The notes beneath the pieces are model-generated. The model had not been told where the DNA came from, did no database searches, and saw nothing but the letters and a program-made list of their open reading frames with translations. From NCBI GenBank assembly GCA_963836955.1, contig CAWILO010000005.1, forward strand, positions 207,466 to 271,465: DNA of 64,000 bases, written 5' to 3'. Both the position numbers and the translations under genes were made by a program. Shown in pieces: positions 26,216 to 38,386 of this stretch. Position 1 is the first letter of the stretch. Every line of letters starts with the position of its first letter. The DNA is from an uncultured delta proteobacterium. Lineage in GTDB: Bacteria; Desulfobacterota; Binatia; Binatales; Binataceae.

Positions 26216-27190
26216 TTAGCGGAGATCGAGATGGACTGAGGTTGGCGTGCCGCCGCGATTGATCGTGAGATCGATCGCCGACGCGGTCCTGATAGATTGC
26301 ATCAGGCCCAGCGCCTGCATCGGATTGGTGACGGGCTGTCCGTCGATCTTCGTCAGCAAGTCGCCGTCCTGCAGACCGAGCTGATCGAAGACCGAGCCCG
26401 GCGCGACCTGGGAGATCGAGAATCCATCCGTCTTGCCGTCGACGAAGTGGGGCAGGGCGCGCATCTGCGTGAAGAACGCCGCGGGATTCTGCATCGTCTG
26501 CGCGACTTCAGCGCGGTTGGCGACGAATTTTCCTGGACCTAACTTCTTCAGCTCGAGTTTGCTGTCGTCGCTATTGTCGTTGCTGTCGTCGTTGTTGTCG
26601 TTGCTGTCGTCGTCATCGTTGCCCGCCGCGGGATGACCATGCATTCTGCGCCGGATGGCCGCCGGAATTCCTCTGAGCATCGGCGCTCTCACCGCGCCGC
26701 CCAGCTCGGAAGGCGGTACTTCGGGCAGATCCGAAGTCGGAATGTCGATGGCGACGCGATGCCCGCTGCGGTCGATAATCGCGCGGTTGACTTCGACGGC
26801 TACCAGCCGGCCCGCATTCGGAATGTCTTCTCCGACCTGGTACAGCGATTCGTTGCCGGTGTCGTCCTCGATAATCGCATACGGCTTCGATTTGCTCTGG
26901 AGCGAAGTGCCGATCAGCTTCAGGTGCAAGTCCTCGACCACCACCGGCGCGGGCCCGGTCTCCTGCGGCACCGCGTTGAAGATGTCGCGCTTGACGATTC
27001 CGTCGTAGTACGTGCGCGTCCGCGTGCCGGCCGCGGTCCTCGCGGTGGAAGCAGCCACGGGCGCGTCGGGTTCATTGGCAACGGTGCGCTCGATCACGTC
27101 GCGCACGCACATCGCCGAGACGACCGCCAACGCGCCGACCAGCGCGAAGTTCAGAATCGTGACGTGAACTTGTGAGAACCTGAGTTCCAT
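26216..27190 (-). CDS. GspC-like protein: N-terminal TM, acidic low-complexity linker, C-terminal PDZ domain
   Basis: N-terminal TM helix (ILNFALVGALAVV). D/N/S-rich run GNDDDDSNDNNDDSNDNSDDS. C-terminal PDZ-like region (GSVFDQLGLQDGDLLTKIDGQPV). No other T2SS genes nearby. Confidence 0.5.
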   Translation of the reverse strand: MELRFSQVHVTILNFALVGALAVVSAMCVRDVIERTVANEPDAPVAASTARTAAGTRTRTYYDGIVKRDIFNAVPQETGPAPVVVEDLHLKLIGTSLQSKSKPYAIIEDDTGNESLYQVGEDIPNAGRLVAVEVNRAIIDRSGHRVAIDIPTSDLPEVPPSELGGAVRAPMLRGIPAAIRRRMHGHPAAGNDDDDSNDNNDDSNDNSDDSKLELKKLGPGKFVANRAEVAQTMQNPAAFFTQMRALPHFVDGKTDGFSISQVAPGSVFDQLGLQDGDLLTKIDGQPVTNPMQALGLMQSIRTASAIDLTINRGGTPTSVHLDLR

Positions 27191-29953: not shown

Positions 29954-30117
29954 TCAAATCCAATCGCGACTCTCTGAAAAGAAGGCTCCGCCAAGCGCGC
30001 TTATAATGTCCCCGCCAGATACGCGAGGCAAGCACGAACGAAAGGGTTTCGGAGCCGCCGCTGATCCCTCGCACACGCTCCCAATTCTAACAAGGACGAC
30101 GCCCCGCATCTCACTTA

Positions 30118-30176
30118 GTACTGGGTGCAGGGGTCACCCCTGCCCAGGGAAGTGTGAAACCCACGGCGGGTTTCAC
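30118..30176 (+). repeat. palindromic repeat element copy A (core double hairpin)
   Basis: CAGGGGTCACCCCTG hairpin plus GTGAAACCCACGGCGGGTTTCAC hairpin. Near-identical to copies at 32427-32525 (inverted) and 52065-52163. Confidence 0.8.
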
Positions 30177-30243
30177 ATTCAATCCAGTGAGGTCCCTCGA
30201 CTTTGCGCAAAAACGTGTAAGATGGCGCCGGAGAAATTTCGCG

Positions 30244-31746
30244 ATGCCTCAGGTGATACTTGCGATCGATCAGGGTACTACCGGCACGACGGTTTTTGTC
30301 GTCGATGCACGCGGACGGATTCGCGGACGCGCTTACGCCGAGATACGGCAGCTCTACCCGAAGCCCGGATGGGTCGAGCATGATCCCGAAGAAATTTACC
30401 GCTCGGTCGTCACACTTTCGAAAAAAGCGATCGCCGCCGCCAAGATTTCCGCCGGCGCGATCGCCGGAATCGGAATCACCAATCAACGCGAGACGTTCGT
30501 GGTATGGGAGCGGCGCAGCCGCCGCCCGGTTTATCGCGCGATCGTCTGGCAATGCCGCCGCAGCGCCGCTATCTGCGACGCCTTGCGCGAGCGCGAGCCC
30601 GAAGTTGCGAGCCGCACGGGACTGATCATCGATCCGTACTTCTCCGGCACCAAGCTCAAGTGGCTGCTCGACGAAAAGCCCGAACTGCGCGAGCGTGGCG
30701 CGCGCGGCGAGCTGTGCTTCGGCACGATCGATACCTGGCTGGTGCATAAGCTGTCGCGCGGAGCGGAGTTCGTGACCGACTACACCAATGCGTCGCGCAC
30801 GATGATGTTCAACCTGGCGCGCCGGGAATGGGATGACGAGATGCTCGCGATGCTGGGCGTTCCGCGCGAGATGCTGCCCCGCGCCGTCAGTTCGCGCGGC
30901 CCGACTGCAGCGACGGCGGCGGGCACGATCGCGTCGCATGCGATTCCGATCGCCGCGATGATCGGCGACCAGCAATCGGCGCTGTACGGCCAAGGCGCGG
31001 TCGCCGCCGGCGACTCGAAGGCTACTTACGGGACGGGGGCGTTCCTGCTGATGAACACCGGCGACAAGATGGTGCCGTCGAAGAATCGATTGCTCACCAC
31101 GTCGGCACTCGGCCCCGCCGGCGAGCCTGCGTATGCGCTCGAAGGTTCCGTCTTTATCGCGGGCGCCGCCGTGCAATGGCTTCGCGACGGCCTGAAGATC
31201 GTGCGCAACGCCGCGGATACATACGCGGAGGCGCGCGCCAGTCTTGCGATAAATAAGGATCGCACACAGCCCTACGTGGTGCCGGCGTTCGTTGGACTCG
31301 GCGCGCCGCATTGGGATGCGACGGCGAAGGGCGCGATCGTGGGAATCACCCGAGGCACGACCCGTGCCGACGTAATCCGCGCGACGCTCGACAGTATCGC
31401 CTACCAGGTTCGCGACGTAATAGTTGCGATGGAGTCCGACACCGGGCATCCGATGAGCGAGCTGCGCGCCGACGGAGGCGCGACCAAGAATCGCTACCTG
31501 ATGCAGTTCCAGGCGGATATTCTTGGCAAGCCGGTCCTGCGCGCGAAGATCGCCGAAACCACTGCGATGGGCGCGGCGATGCTCGCGGGGCTGGCGATGG
31601 GAGTGTGGAAATCGCCCGATGAGTTGCGGGCGATCGTCAAGGGAGCGGACGTGTTCAAGCCAAAAATGCAAACCGCCGAACGCGAACAATTGCTCGCCGG
31701 ATGGCATGACGCGGTTGCGCGTGTGCTCACGAAGCCGTCGAACTGA
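30244..31746 (+). CDS. glpK: glycerol kinase
   Basis: GlpK N-terminus MPQVILAIDQGTTGT and full-length FGGY kinase pattern. Start trimmed from 30154; the upstream 30 codons are a translated repeat element. Confidence 0.9.
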   Translation: MPQVILAIDQGTTGTTVFVVDARGRIRGRAYAEIRQLYPKPGWVEHDPEEIYRSVVTLSKKAIAAAKISAGAIAGIGITNQRETFVVWERRSRRPVYRAIVWQCRRSAAICDALREREPEVASRTGLIIDPYFSGTKLKWLLDEKPELRERGARGELCFGTIDTWLVHKLSRGAEFVTDYTNASRTMMFNLARREWDDEMLAMLGVPREMLPRAVSSRGPTAATAAGTIASHAIPIAAMIGDQQSALYGQGAVAAGDSKATYGTGAFLLMNTGDKMVPSKNRLLTTSALGPAGEPAYALEGSVFIAGAAVQWLRDGLKIVRNAADTYAEARASLAINKDRTQPYVVPAFVGLGAPHWDATAKGAIVGITRGTTRADVIRATLDSIAYQVRDVIVAMESDTGHPMSELRADGGATKNRYLMQFQADILGKPVLRAKIAETTAMGAAMLAGLAMGVWKSPDELRAIVKGADVFKPKMQTAEREQLLAGWHDAVARVLTKPSN

Positions 31747-31764
31747 ATCGAGGAATCGAAAACA

Positions 31765-32403
31765 ATGCCTGAGAATGGAAAACCGTACGTCACCGCCTTG
31801 TATCCCGAACAGCACGACCAGGCCGCCGACTCGCTCGGCCGCGCCTTCATCAACGATCCGACCTTCAAGGCGATAATTCCGGATATAACCGACCCGGTCG
31901 AGCGCGCGGCCCGCCTGGCAGATCTGTTCCGCGGGATGCTCGCGATCGAACGCCGTTCAGGGCAGCCAGTGTTCGGAATCGTCGACGACAATGGACGTGT
32001 CGTCGCAGCCGCGATGACCGAAGGCGTCGGGCATCCGGGAGCGCTCGGGTTGGTCGCCACCGGCCTTGGACAGATGCCGCGTATGATCCGGGCGATCGGA
32101 ATGGGCGGGTTGTGGCGGGGGCTCAATCTCGTCAGCGTACTGTCAAACAATCATCCTAAGGAGCCGCACCTGTACCTGCAGGTGCTCGGATGCGATCCGC
32201 CGTTCCAAGGTAAAGGTTATGGCAAGGCGTTGGTCGACAGGATCGCGCTCGAGGCAAAGGCGCGGCCTGAAATCGCCGGCGTCTACCTCGAGACGATGAC
32301 CGAAGCCAACGTCGCGTTCTACAGTTCCAGGGGCTATGAAGTCCTGGGCGAGTTGTATCCGCTGGGCGTCAGGACATGGCGGATGTACCAACGGACGAGA
32401 TGA
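31765..32403 (+). CDS. GNAT family N-acetyltransferase
   Basis: 212 aa with GNAT core (QGKGYGKALVDRI) and C-terminal motif (FYSSRGYEV). Confidence 0.7.
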   Translation: MPENGKPYVTALYPEQHDQAADSLGRAFINDPTFKAIIPDITDPVERAARLADLFRGMLAIERRSGQPVFGIVDDNGRVVAAAMTEGVGHPGALGLVATGLGQMPRMIRAIGMGGLWRGLNLVSVLSNNHPKEPHLYLQVLGCDPPFQGKGYGKALVDRIALEAKARPEIAGVYLETMTEANVAFYSSRGYEVLGELYPLGVRTWRMYQRTR

Positions 32404-33549: not shown

Positions 33550-33741
33550 TGAGTACCTCCTGAGCGACTCAGTCGCCGTCGTAATAGCATTCGAAGTGGA
33601 TGGTATGCGCACGAATCCTACTTAATCAAAAATAATCGTGTCAACCGGGCTTGCACACTCACTGTAGCGCGGTCGCAGTTGACAATGAACATATACAATC
33701 GTAGGTTTTCGAATCGCGAACAGTCGCGTTCAACAGGGGGA

Positions 33742-34110
33742 ATGCGGTCGAATCCGATGGAAACCGATAATCCTGCCGCCCGGAAGAAACTGAAAGAGCG
33801 ATTGCGCCAGCTGATCGGCACCGGCGCGAGTTCTATCGTGCTTGCGACAACGATCCTGAGTGCAATTCCTGCGGACGCAAATGTCGCGGACTTAAATCCC
33901 GCGGGAACTCTTAAGCAGCGCGTCGAGAAGGTGCGTCCGCAAGCGCAAGACGCGGACGCCAATCTGATCAAGCAGGGTGATTCGAAAATCCAGTTGGCCT
34001 GGTGGCGTAACTGGCGCAACGGCGGATGGCGCGGCTGGGGTTGGCCGAACTGGCATAACTGGCCGAACTGGCACAACTGGCATAATTGGCACAACTGGCA
34101 CAATTGGTAG
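33742..34110 (+). CDS. candidate RiPP precursor: signal-peptide-like leader plus C-terminal Trp-rich tandem WxN repeat
   Basis: Strong SD (AGGGGG) before the ATG at 33742. Leader has a positively charged n-region (RKKLKERLRQ), a hydrophobic core (LIGTGASSIVLATTILSAIPA) and an ADA|NV cleavage-like site. The C-terminus is imperfect 9-bp tandem repeats (aactggcay) ending in WPNWHNWPNWHNWHNWHNWHNW and a stop. Confidence 0.5.
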   Translation: MRSNPMETDNPAARKKLKERLRQLIGTGASSIVLATTILSAIPADANVADLNPAGTLKQRVEKVRPQAQDADANLIKQGDSKIQLAWWRNWRNGGWRGWGWPNWHNWPNWHNWHNWHNWHNW

Positions 34111-34173
34111 CACCTGATTCGCAGTAGCATTGCGGCGCGCGTCGCAAAGGCGCAGCGCTGAGCGATATTCAAG

Positions 34174-35343
34174 ATGGCTGCGGGCAATAGATGGCGAATC
34201 GCCGGGCCGCTCGAGCTTCTCGTCTTACAGCCGACTCCGTTTTGTAATCTCGACTGTTCGTACTGCTACCTTCCCGATCGCGACTCGAAGCGCAGGATGT
34301 CTGACGCGACTCTGAATCGCGTCTTTGATTTCGTCTTTTCAAGCGGAATCGTGGAACGCGGATTCACAGTTGTATGGCATGCAGGCGAGCCGATGGTGCT
34401 GCCGGTGGCTTACTACGAACGTGCGATCGAAATTGTCGGCAATCATGATCCGGGCGGCTTGCGAGTCGGGCATTCGTTCCAGACCAATGGCGTGCTGATC
34501 GATGACGCGTGGTGCGATTTTTTCAAGCGGCACGGAGTCAACGTCGGTATCAGCGTTGACGGACCCGCGTTCCTTCACGATCGCAATCGGAAGGCGCGCA
34601 AGGGCGCTGGGACTCATCATCGCGTCATGAAAGGAATTCGAAAACTGCAAAGCCACGACGTGCCGTTCCACGTGATCTCGGTGCTCACGGGAGAGTCACT
34701 CGACTACGCCGACGAGCTTTACGATTTCTATGTCGAGAACGAGATTTGGGAGGTCGCTTTCAATATCGAGGAGATCGAAGGACCGCACACCTCGTCCACG
34801 CTGGGGGCGGCGGTGGTCGAGGACCGCTTCCGGCGTTTTATCGGAAGATTTTTCGATCTTGTCGCGCGCGATGAATTGGCGACGAGCGTGCGCGAGTTCG
34901 ATTCGATGGTTCCGCTGATTCTCGGCGGGAACAGGGGCGAGGTTCCGCTGACTCAGGAAAATGCGCCGTGCTCGATACTCAGTATCGATTGCGAAGGAAA
35001 CTTCACTACCTATTCTCCGGAACTGCTCGGTCTCAAGAGTAGTCACTATGGTGATTTCGCTATAGGCAATGTGAAGACGGATACGCTCGCATCCGCGATC
35101 AACGGCGAGAAGTTTCGCCGCATTAGTAGTGACATTGCGCGCGGACTGAGTAAGTGCCGCGATACTTGTGAGTATTACAGTTTGTGCGGCGGCGGCGCTC
35201 CGGTGAACAAGTACTTCGAGAATGGTTCGTTCGATTCGACCGAGACCATGTTCTGCCGCCTGAATCGCAAGGTTCTGGTCGACATGATCGTCGCGAAGCT
35301 GCAACATCCGGTTGGCGTCCTGGCATCCGTTCAAAATCAGTGA
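34174..35343 (+). CDS. radical SAM/SPASM domain protein (anSME/peptide-maturase family)
   Basis: CxxxCxxC motif (CNLDCSYC). C-terminal SPASM cysteine cluster (CSILSIDCEGN ... CRDTCEYYSLCGGG ... FC). Starts 64 bp after the Trp-repeat gene on the same strand. Confidence 0.85.
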   Translation: MAAGNRWRIAGPLELLVLQPTPFCNLDCSYCYLPDRDSKRRMSDATLNRVFDFVFSSGIVERGFTVVWHAGEPMVLPVAYYERAIEIVGNHDPGGLRVGHSFQTNGVLIDDAWCDFFKRHGVNVGISVDGPAFLHDRNRKARKGAGTHHRVMKGIRKLQSHDVPFHVISVLTGESLDYADELYDFYVENEIWEVAFNIEEIEGPHTSSTLGAAVVEDRFRRFIGRFFDLVARDELATSVREFDSMVPLILGGNRGEVPLTQENAPCSILSIDCEGNFTTYSPELLGLKSSHYGDFAIGNVKTDTLASAINGEKFRRISSDIARGLSKCRDTCEYYSLCGGGAPVNKYFENGSFDSTETMFCRLNRKVLVDMIVAKLQHPVGVLASVQNQ

Positions 35344-35951
35344 AGATCCGCCACGCGGCGCGATACCAGAGCGCGCGGAAGCTGGCGGATCGCGTCCAGG
35401 TGCTCGACGCGTCCGGATGGCGGCGCGCGAACGCGGGCGAGATGGCGTCGCTATGCACTGAGAGCGTCGGCTCGGCCGACGGCGATGTGTCGGTGATCGC
35501 GATACCAAAGCATTTGCTGAAGCGATGGTGGAAGCTGGCCGAATCGCGCGACGGCGATCTGACCAACATCGGTCCTGGGTTCGAGAGCTACGCGCGCGAG
35601 GTTGCCGAATACTTCAACTACAAAAATTGGCCCTTGCCATCTGATGCCGTTATGGAGGTTGTGGTCTCTGGCGGCGAGGATCGTGCGAGCGGGGCGGACG
35701 ATGCGTTCGCACTGCAATCGAGTCGCGCGACCCGTTTCAGCGGCGGCGTTGGGATGACACTAGCGTGCATCAACCTTGGCGACGAGGAGCTCGCGATCGT
35801 TTTGGACGCCGAATCCGGACGGATTCGCGTCATCCTCGAGGCAGGGGAGGGCGTGATGCTGCCCGAGCGCGGTATCCTGTGGAATCGAATGACTATTGGG
35901 AGCTCGGACCTCGCCGTGACATTGACTATCGGGACGCTCTCAACTGACTAG
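35341..35951 (+). CDS. hypothetical protein translationally coupled to the rSAM gene
   Basis: GTG start overlaps the rSAM TGA stop (GTGA). 203 aa; no recognisable family. The ORF-finder version (35184..) overlaps the rSAM 3' end. Confidence 0.4.
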
Positions 35952-37549: not shown

Positions 37550-38386
37550 TCAGTAGGGATAGGCCGGCCCGCCGTATCCGAATCCTGAACCCGGCATCGG
37601 CGGCGGATAGGTCGGATAGCCGTAACTGCGGTAGCTGGGCGCGTAGCCGGAACTGAATCCGCCGAAGCTTCCACCGTAACCGCCGCTGCCCATCGAAATA
37701 CCGCCCCCGAGCAACATCGGGAGAATCGTCGTCAGCATGCTCGGCGGAGCGTTGTTGTACTGCTGAAACTGTTGCTGTCCCTGCGCCTGGTAAGCATACG
37801 CGTCGGGCGGCATGTTGTTCTGATAGTCCTGGATCGAGCCGGAGTTGGCGTAAGGATCGGAGCCATCCGACGGCATCGCGTTCGCGGACGGAACACCGTT
37901 GGCAGTCGAGCCGGAGCCGCCGCCCTTGCTGCCCGCGAGTTCCGGGGTGATCTTGATCCGATTGTCAACTACGAGCGACGGATCCTTCAAATAATGGCGA
38001 GCCTTCTGCTCGGCGTCGGTCTTGCCGAAGTCGCTTGCGACGAAACCGAACAGAATCACCTGCTTCCCGCCGCTCGGACTGGTGACGACTTGACCACCGA
38101 CCAGTGGCAGCGAGTGATGCTTCAGGTAATCGGACAGACCCTGGCTCTGCGGTGAATCGACAATGCCGCCGGCGACGGTGCCCGCGCTCGATGGAGCGGG
38201 CAAACTCGAAGTGGAATCGTAGCTGTTCGAGGCGCCGACCTGCGCGGCATTAGTCGCGCCGGTCGGATTCTGCACGGGCTCGCATGAGGCCAATCCCGCC
38301 AGCGCCGCCGCCAGCCCGAAGGCCGCCAGGGCATTTCCGATGCGACTCATAGAACGGATTATAGTCCGGTACCACGCACCTAACAA
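37550..38386 (-). CDS. lipoprotein with BON-like domain and Gly/Tyr/Pro-rich C-terminal tail
   Basis: Lipobox LAGLASC; BON-like region (LSDYLKHHSLPLVGGQVV..ILFGFV); low-complexity GYGGSFGG..YPPP tail. Confidence 0.5.
   Translation of the reverse strand: MLGAWYRTIIRSMSRIGNALAAFGLAAALAGLASCEPVQNPTGATNAAQVGASNSYDSTSSLPAPSSAGTVAGGIVDSPQSQGLSDYLKHHSLPLVGGQVVTSPSGGKQVILFGFVASDFGKTDAEQKARHYLKDPSLVVDNRIKITPELAGSKGGGSGSTANGVPSANAMPSDGSDPYANSGSIQDYQNNMPPDAYAYQAQGQQQFQQYNNAPPSMLTTILPMLLGGGISMGSGGYGGSFGGFSSGYAPSYRSYGYPTYPPPMPGSGFGYGGPAYPY

Follow-up and report, generated by a model that had tools for sequence, protein, structure and literature searches.

Among peptides that are ribosomally made and then post-translationally modified (RiPPs), the closest described counterpart of the locus considered here is the OscA/OscB (GrrA/GrrM) system, whose maturase OscB (IPR026357) is reported to form three-residue cyclophanes that join Trp-C7 to Asn/Asp-Cβ, as well as Phe-C4 to Asn-Cβ (review of Nguyen et al., Nat. 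Chem. 2020; PMC11002830). The corresponding precursors are collected in NCBIfam model TIGR04260 under the name 'GrrA/OscA1 family cyclophane-containing rSAM-modified RiPP'. A second relevant protein is MicC of the minviopeptin triceptide cluster, an α-ketoglutarate (αKG)-dependent non-heme iron enzyme with the triad H160-D162-H253, which cleaves the N-Cα bond at Gly to leave a C-terminal amide and recognises the modified core rather than the leader (PDB 9VKM; PMC12912966). Another triceptide cluster includes HtkC, an uncharacterised precursor-binding protein (PMC11499958). With regard to export, the bufferins are RiPPs whose precursors carry signals for the general secretory (Sec) pathway and whose Sec export is proven; their authors expect macrocyclic peptides to be poor SecY substrates (PMC11626156). 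The DNA analysed here, hereafter the window, is a stretch of 64,000 nucleotides from contig CAWILO010000005.1 of an uncultured delta proteobacterium assigned to the Binatia, and it holds three closely spaced genes on the forward strand between positions 33757 and 35951. With a probability of about 80%, these genes represent a GrrM/OscB-type triceptide (cyclophane RiPP) cluster of a Binatia-like bacterium, with putative Sec export of its product and a third protein that is presumably non-catalytic.

The three genes, delimited from the sequence and the list of open reading frames (ORFs), encode a precursor peptide (33757-34110, + strand, 117 aa), a radical S-adenosylmethionine (SAM)/SPASM peptide maturase (34174-35343, + strand, 389 aa), and a protein of 203 aa (35340-35951, + strand). 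A gap of 63 bp separates the precursor stop from the maturase ORF; the initial annotation of this DNA had adjacency and strand right and gave the spacing as 64 bp. The GTG start of the third gene at 35340 overlaps the TGA stop of the maturase gene at 35341-35343 by 4 bp (GTGA), and the translational coupling claimed earlier agrees with these coordinates.

The maturase scores 480.2 bits against TIGR04261 'cyclophane-forming radical SAM/SPASM peptide maturase GrrM/OscB' (cutoff 310), in an alignment extending from residue 18 to 377 over model positions 1-362 of 363, and matches Pfam Radical_SAM at 70 bits. All other families remain below their cutoffs, including AmcB (NF041718; 311 vs. 425), the anaerobic sulfatase-maturating enzymes (anSME/AtsB, TIGR03942; 191.3 vs. 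349), DynA (168 vs. 450), DarW (119 vs. 650), DarE (NF038005; 103.6 vs. 650), and XyeB (93 vs. 450). All 66 relatives retain the CX3CX2C motif CNLDCSYC (residues 24-31, with C24, C28, and C31) as well as C328, C332, C338, and C361 near the C-terminus; C114 is conserved in 62 of them and C273 is Cys in 31. Judged by these matches, the enzyme is a clear member of the GrrM/OscB family, and the W-x-N core described below is, by its motif, exactly the substrate type of that family; by analogy with OscB, the enzyme would cross-link Trp to Asn. The initial annotation, which had listed the GRRM system beside anSME, XyeB, and DarE as possible homes for the enzyme, is answered by the GrrM/OscB model, and its proposal that an aromatic-x-Asn precursor beside a radical SAM/SPASM gene makes a triceptide system is well supported by the TIGR04261 score (480 bits) and the OscB motif type (PMC11002830). 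Its comparison with darobactin does not hold in the family sense, DarE scoring 104 against a cutoff of 650. DarE, DynA, and AmcB, the last of which gave no hits in the literature search, share with the window enzyme membership of a wider clade of cyclophane- or ether-forming radical SAM/SPASM maturases that act on Trp-containing cores, but all of them score below cutoff and the core here differs from the darobactin sequence W-N-W-S-K-S-F.

The ORF at 33679-34110 ends in WWRNWRNGGWRGWGWPNWHNWPNWHNWHNWHNWHNW and contains exactly nine W-x-N units, where nine or more aromatic-x-Asn units with Trp as the aromatic residue had been counted before, so that the repeat stands and the number becomes definite. 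These units make up the predicted core peptide W82-W117 (34000-34107, + strand), in which they are the predicted Trp-to-Asn-Cβ cross-link sites. As previously noted, the end of the core is encoded by an imperfect 9-bp tandem DNA repeat, AACTGGCAC, which Tandem Repeats Finder places at 34048-34107, over part of the W-x-N array, with 6.7 copies encoding N-W-H/P units. The 9-bp unit is found at 82% matches, and periods of 18 and 27 bp at 87-90%, which suggests recent tandem duplication. The array is expanded in the window (34042-34107), where seven W-x-N units follow GWGW vs. four in the nearest Binatia homologues, and sequence comparison shows repeat number to be very labile in the precursor family. 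An alphaproteobacterial precursor (L089:3122-3958) has a long unbroken WNN run, with 16 Trp in its last 45 residues. The core of the window precursor contains Gly residues (NGGWRGWGW), no Lys, no WNW, and no W-N-W-x-K motif. The x position of W-x-N is occupied by H, R, P, or G in close relatives (e.g. WRNWGNW), and since it varies in this way, conserved metal binding by the His residues of the core is unlikely; a His-rich core as a conserved metal binder was therefore rejected.

That the repeat peptide has a real gene is evident when the window is set beside 11 further loci of this type (L001, L004, and L010-L018). The sense frame is open in 12 of these 12 Binatia-type loci. In 7 of the other 11, by contrast, the antisense frame reading CQLCQL is shortened to 56-85 codons, and the remaining antisense frames are broken by stops in others. 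Differences between the precursor and its close relatives fall mostly at codon position 3, and synonymous changes outnumber non-synonymous ones (36 vs. 17 codons for L001). The precursor gene is conserved and under purifying selection, and the sense peptide, not the antisense one, is the real gene. Its start is most likely ATG 33757 (METDNPAARKK..., 117 aa) rather than TTG 33679, because 182 homologues of about 108 aa begin with MESD or VESD; the earlier description of a small gene from 33679 fits the maximal ORF, which does exist, and probably not the translated one. The TTG that opens the maximal ORF lies inside TTGACA, with TAGGTT 17 nt further on (33679-33707), and may be part of a weak promoter instead of a start codon, although a consensus scan made no call there. 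In general, the promoter and terminator scan returned sites no more frequently than in shuffled sequence, and the hairpin in the 63-bp intergenic gap is no more stable than in shuffles (z = 0.18). Frameshifts were seen within the repeat of two other precursors (P0026 and P0027), and a radical SAM gene occurs in two pieces at L003:8394-9568; these are probably assembly or sequencing errors, possibly pseudogenes.

The pairing of precursor and enzyme is not confined to this genome. When an alignment of four such enzymes was scanned against one genome per GTDB species, at least 582 relatives were found, the best 80 of which come from Binatia ('uncultured delta proteobacterium' or Candidatus Binatus), Planctomycetota, Verrucomicrobiota, Acidobacteriota, Gemmatimonadota, Eremiobacterota, many Alphaproteobacteria (including Bradyrhizobium and Stellaceae), and Cyanobacteria. 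Enzymes of distant loci also exceed the TIGR04261 cutoff, with 473 (L004), 415 (L007), 550 (L042), and 634 bits (L057). In 83 non-redundant loci, linkage was scored when the ORF immediately upstream of the enzyme carried five or more aromatic-x-N/D motifs within its 45 C-terminal residues; such an ORF directly precedes the enzyme in 56 of the 83 loci (Trp-based in 46) vs. 0 of 6001 other ORFs of the same loci, with positive loci in Binatia, Planctomycetota, Verrucomicrobiota, Acidobacteriota, Alphaproteobacteria, and Cyanobacteria. The co-occurrence of repeat ORFs and radical SAM genes that the initial annotation proposed to check is borne out: the pairing goes far beyond chance, and W-x-N repeat precursors are the norm for the GrrM/OscB family.

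When every ORF lying up to 3.5 kb from the enzyme at these 83 loci was clustered, only precursor genes, the maturase, a gene related to micC, and an alternative secreted protein (22 loci) were recovered, with no conserved peptidase or transporter, in line with the earlier remark that no dedicated protease or transporter is nearby. The window also encodes an ABC ATPase 1.4 kb downstream, which is LptB and whose synteny is limited to Binatia. The alternative protein, of about 250 aa, replaces the MicC-like gene at L007:9663-10415 and in 21 other alphaproteobacterial loci; it has no Pfam match and ends ..HNPNRLNLxL..DNTI..AFWE. Alphaproteobacterial GrrM loci often have a second precursor gene of the WRNGG-repeat type as well (L007:7430-7843).

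The precursor N-terminus (residues 1-41; 33757-33879, + strand) resembles a signal peptide in a heuristic scan: its n-region is charged, the segment GTGASSIVLATTILSAIPA is uncharged, and ADA|NV is the putative cleavage site. It is followed by a conserved leader motif, TLKQRVEKVRPQ (33907-33942, + strand), recognised by comparison of homologues and described by the pattern h-x-E/Q-R-h-x-x-h-R/K, which is a candidate recognition element for the maturase. Counterparts such as VSERLAAIRDAV, IQERVKTVRESL, and VEERLHRVRISL occur between hydrophobic segment and core in many phyla; the helix-like part reads QRVEKVR in the window and ERLAAIR, ERVKTVR, or ERLHRVR in other precursors. By inspection, precursors of 18 lineages, including the classical cyanobacterial GrrA types, have in common the position upstream of GrrM and one layout from N to C terminus, in which a charged N-terminus leads into some 20 uncharged, hydrophobic residues with P-A-x-A at their end, followed by a linker, the helix motif, a second linker, and the repeats, which usually begin LAWW or LAWG. 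By the same heuristic, 106 of 120 homologues, like the window precursor, combine an n-region of net positive charge with about 20 uncharged residues that include a hydrophobic core, and have small -1/-3 residues near positions 39-41, so the Sec-signal-like appearance pointed out in the initial annotation (ADA|NV) is family-wide by this measure. No lipobox Cys was seen in the precursors. A loose twin-arginine pattern was found in just 6 of 176, and twin-arginine translocation (Tat) was rejected as a general explanation of export on that count; canonical motifs are present in two precursors, those of L020 (Isosphaeraceae; NRRNFLD) and L028 (SRRSLLR), and some lineages may use Tat. As the cluster has no conserved transporter or protease of its own, Sec export followed by a signal peptidase cut near ADA|NV would be the simplest reading.

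The locus resembles OscA/OscB in having an enzyme of the same family above cutoff, a precursor with aromatic-x-Asn repeats directly upstream, and a precursor layout of hydrophobic N-terminus, ERhxxhR helix, and repeats. It differs in its Trp-rich, Gly-poor precursor, which falls below TIGR04260, in its Binatia-like host as opposed to a cyanobacterium, and in the presence of a MicC-like gene that lacks the iron-binding triad.

This third gene had been placed in no family by the initial annotation, and its product indeed has no match in Pfam or NCBIfam; profile comparison, on the other hand, assigns it to the MicC family as a double-stranded β-helix (DSBH, cupin-like) protein whose 2-His-1-Asp iron ligands have been lost. 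Homologues lie directly after the enzyme in 29 of the 83 loci (32 in the raw cluster, before shadow and truncated ORFs were dropped), and in the window as well as at 13 further loci the gene start overlaps the radical SAM stop by 4 bp. Host lineages are Binatia, Planctomycetota, Verrucomicrobiota, Myxococcota, several proteobacterial lineages, Gemmatimonas, and the cyanobacterium Adonisia. A confident AlphaFold2 model (predicted local distance difference test, pLDDT, 86; predicted template modelling score, pTM, 0.85), derived from an alignment of 66 sequences, predicts a DSBH fold, for which Foldseek against the PDB returned generic cupins and prolyl hydroxylases at template modelling (TM) scores of 0.4-0.5 only, 9VKM not being among the matches listed. 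Family profiles do reach MicC, the single solved structure found in this way (PDB 9VKM), at E values of 4.5e-65 (alignment A4) and 6.8e-14 (A3), and for a profile of 24 triad-less proteins (A8) MicC is the sole significant PDB match (E 2.4e-5). When intermediate lineages are included, hhalign joins the triad-less profile (A8) to a triad-containing one (A7) with 99.8% probability (E 1.7e-27). On these profile matches, the third protein belongs to the MicC family, with a homology that does not depend on triad-intact members.

Alignment A4 comprises 66 sequences, 53 of them from outside Binatia, including many cyanobacterial and some Bacteroidota members. The HDH triad (HxD...H) is present in 51 of these 53, and the Arg that follows in 41 of the 51. 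Throughout the Binatia homologues, the window protein included, the triad columns are gap, gap, and W, the HxD segment being deleted and the distal His replaced by Trp, and the triad is also gone from most other non-cyanobacterial lineages. The orthologue of Adonisia turfae (L042:5173-6054) has an intact HDH triad. The window protein contains only two His (H5 and H58), both outside the DSBH core, and lacks the Arg that commonly follows the distal His. In the triad-less alignment, W27, K95, and N145 are the only invariant residues; residues common to the triad-less and intact branches lie mostly N-terminal to the β-helix (W27, R28, E34, and P56), together with NLG and PGE motifs. A profile search of 1.84 billion cluster representatives found 745 MicC-family members at E<=1e-3, and among the best 150 of them 100 lack all three ligands, 27 retain some, and 23 retain all. 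One further, distant triad-less member was found just after a GrrM-like enzyme. The window protein therefore shares with MicC a full-length family match (A4 and A8), the predicted DSBH fold, and a gene position next to a cyclophane-forming radical SAM gene, but it lacks all three ligands, is about 90 residues shorter, and should not be classed as a functional MicC. Because it is a MicC homologue without iron ligands, it has presumably ceased to be an oxygenase while keeping an ability to bind the precursor, the cyclised core, or the maturase; a product-binding role fits, since MicC recognises the modified core rather than the leader. In a Nostoc cluster (L091:3258-8232), a MicC-like protein with an intact triad is encoded with a Nif11-leader precursor, a DynA/DarE-like radical SAM enzyme, two JmjC-like proteins, and an ABC exporter with a C39 peptidase; the MicC family therefore also appears to serve cyclophane clusters with classical leaders.

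Taken together, the cluster may be envisaged to work as follows. The 117-aa precursor combines the signal-like N-terminus with a short conserved leader helix (..QRVEKVR..), after which come a linker and a core of 36 residues that holds the nine W-x-N units. In the cytoplasm, the radical SAM enzyme would reductively cleave SAM, and the resulting 5'-deoxyadenosyl radical would abstract hydrogen from the Asn Cβ; the Cβ radical would then attack the indole of the Trp two residues upstream (at C7 in OscB). Each W-x-N unit could thereby become a three-residue cyclophane, giving up to nine cross-links at -2 Da each. The MicC-like protein would assist without catalysis, probably as a cytoplasmic binding partner of precursor, product, or maturase. 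The modified peptide would leave through the general secretory pathway, and a signal peptidase cut near ADA|NV would produce a pro-peptide of 76 residues, perhaps trimmed further. It is tempting to go further and speculate that GrrA-type precursors at large are true pre-pro-peptides, multiply cyclised in the cytoplasm and exported by Sec without dedicated exporter or protease, and that the widespread MicC-like protein without an iron site, as a dedicated cytoplasmic binding partner, holds the precursor or checks the cyclised core before export, a former oxygenase turned chaperone in an envelope RiPP system of soil bacteria with a housekeeping-like character; this wider idea is tentative, and we think it rather less probable than its negation. 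Cytoplasmic action on substrates that bear signal peptides, before export, is familiar from anSME-type enzymes. The bufferins resemble the window system in their long precursors with an N-terminal signal peptide (signal-like in the window), cytoplasmic modification, lack of a dedicated exporter or leader protease, and wide occurrence in environmental bacteria (PMC11626156). They differ in carrying thiooxazoles made by MNIOs (oxidative enzymes that depend on multinuclear non-heme iron) vs. radical SAM cyclophanes, and in that their Sec export is proven, whereas for the window it is inferred; unlike in bufferins, macrocycles would here need to be formed before export. Our literature searches, outside which the primary OscB/GrrM papers (Nat. 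Chem. 2020; JACS 2022) fell, found no triad-less MicC branch and nothing relevant that pairs triceptides with a signal peptide.

Several points weigh against the overall reading. Family membership and substrate motif come from homology, and we infer the position and number of cross-links, the export, and the cleavage site. The window precursor, for which Pfam and NCBIfam gave nothing useful, does not match TIGR04260 (cutoff 31 bits) even at E<=10. Its homologues score in a graded manner, from 23.5 (P0033) and 51.6 (P0111) to 99.6 bits for the cyanobacterial precursor of L057, and it retrieves P0111 at E 2.7e-8; because P0033 and P0111 connect it to TIGR04260, the precursor is, on sequence, a divergent relative of the GrrA/OscA1 family, which supplies the kinship missed by the initial annotation when it did not recognise the family. 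With only four invariant Cys in its C-terminal part and a sub-threshold Pfam SPASM match (19.0 vs. 21.5), the enzyme may have a smaller auxiliary Fe-S complement than a canonical SPASM domain with seven Cys. The signal-peptide call derives from a home-made heuristic, not a validated predictor, and the expected poor passage of macrocycles through SecY is an argument against simple Sec export once the core has been cyclised nine-fold. Finally, the third protein alone gave a chance hit only in phmmer against the PDB, and hhalign of a Binatia-only profile, which is too shallow, against the triad-containing one was weak (probability 6.7%), so that the homology to MicC depends on intermediate sequences.

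Alternative explanations differ considerably in how well they account for these data. The hydrophobic N-terminal segment might be a membrane anchor (N-in, C-out) or a part of the leader recognised by the maturase or the MicC-like protein rather than a cleaved Sec signal, with a product that stays cell-associated, is freed by an unlinked protease or exporter, or uses Tat in a few lineages. We consider this doubtful though by no means far-fetched: the n-region of about 23 aa and the whole segment of 41 aa are longer than in typical Sec signals, the Sec call is heuristic, L020 and L028 do have the canonical twin-arginine motifs NRRNFLD and SRRSLLR, and macrocycles are expected to pass SecY poorly (PMC11626156), but most homologues keep a small -1/-3 site after Pro (P-A-x-A) at the end of the hydrophobic stretch, twin-arginine motifs are few (6 of 176 precursors), and no other exporter or protease is conserved near the cluster in the 83 loci. 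Somewhat less probable, and in our view unlikely, is that the third protein is still an enzyme, using another active site (cupin-type or metal-independent) for a second modification or for peptide cleavage as performed by MicC at Gly. A conserved, translationally coupled protein with a well-folded DSBH core (pLDDT 86), a homologue that is catalytic on cyclophane-bearing cores (PMC12912966), and the Gly residues in NGGWRGWGW would suit such a role; the deleted HxD segment, the His-to-Trp exchange, the missing Arg, the location of H5 and H58 outside the DSBH core, and a set of invariants (W27, K95, and N145) that offers no conserved group of metal ligands would not.

It is very unlikely that the enzyme makes darobactin-type links (Trp-Trp ether and/or Trp-Lys C-C) in place of Trp-Asn cyclophanes. 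The abundance of W-x-N-W spacing in the core, the weak matches of the enzyme to DynA, DarW, and DarE, and the common ancestry of cyclophane-forming enzymes and daropeptide maturases (PMC12912966) all lend the idea some appeal, but scores of 104/650 (DarE), 119/650 (DarW), and 168/450 (DynA) stand against 480/310 for GrrM/OscB, and the core contains neither Lys nor W-N-W-x-K; a darobactin-type system was rejected on the scores and the core motif. Hardly credible is the remaining idea, that the enzyme is an anSME and either the repeat ORF lies beside it by chance or the true gene is the antisense CQLCQL ORF. Among non-RiPP families the anSMEs come closest to the enzyme (191 bits), the relatives L001-L003 have a sulfatase gene about 7 kb upstream, and an antisense ORF of 189 aa is indeed present at 33618-34187. 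Yet the enzyme does not group with the anSMEs, staying well under their cutoff of 349, no sulfatase partner turned up among the large ORFs tested in the window up to about 12 kb upstream, the repeat peptide that serves as substrate accompanies the enzyme across phyla, and stops interrupt the antisense frames in several close relatives in which the sense frame is always open. The pairing with a sulfatase and the antisense gene are both effectively refuted by the scores, the frame comparison, and the linkage of 56/83 vs. 0/6001.

As a GrrM/OscB-type cluster, the locus extends a characterised RiPP family by a Binatia member and by a type of precursor that is Trp-rich and Gly-poor, and is in this respect mostly confirmatory. 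The interest that remains is moderate and lies in the family-wide signal-like leader without linked exporter and in the MicC-like partners without an iron site, the system otherwise being a named and experimentally characterised family. If the leader truly drives Sec export, a large family (at least 582 relatives) would be a class of radical SAM macrocyclic RiPPs that uses the general secretory pathway, and would put to the test the assumption that macrocycles are poor SecY substrates. Likewise, a large cross-phylum branch of MicC-like proteins that lost the iron site yet stayed coupled to the maturase would provide a testable case of an enzyme fold kept for a non-catalytic role in RiPP biosynthesis.

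Elsewhere in the window, a type II secretion GspC-like protein (T2SSC and PDZ domains) is encoded at 26216-27190 (- strand), about 7 kb upstream of the cluster, with no other type II secretion system genes among the window ORFs tested. A 566-aa ORF at 30115-31815 (- strand) is antisense to glpK, fully overlaps it, and looks like a shadow ORF of high GC content. Adjoining lptB, a 278-aa ORF at 37550-38386 (- strand), without a family match, has a hydrophobic N-terminal segment, AAFGLAAALAGLASC, and a low-complexity C-terminus rich in Gly, Tyr, Pro, and Ser (..GGYGGSFGGFSSGYAPSYRSYGYPTYPPP..).

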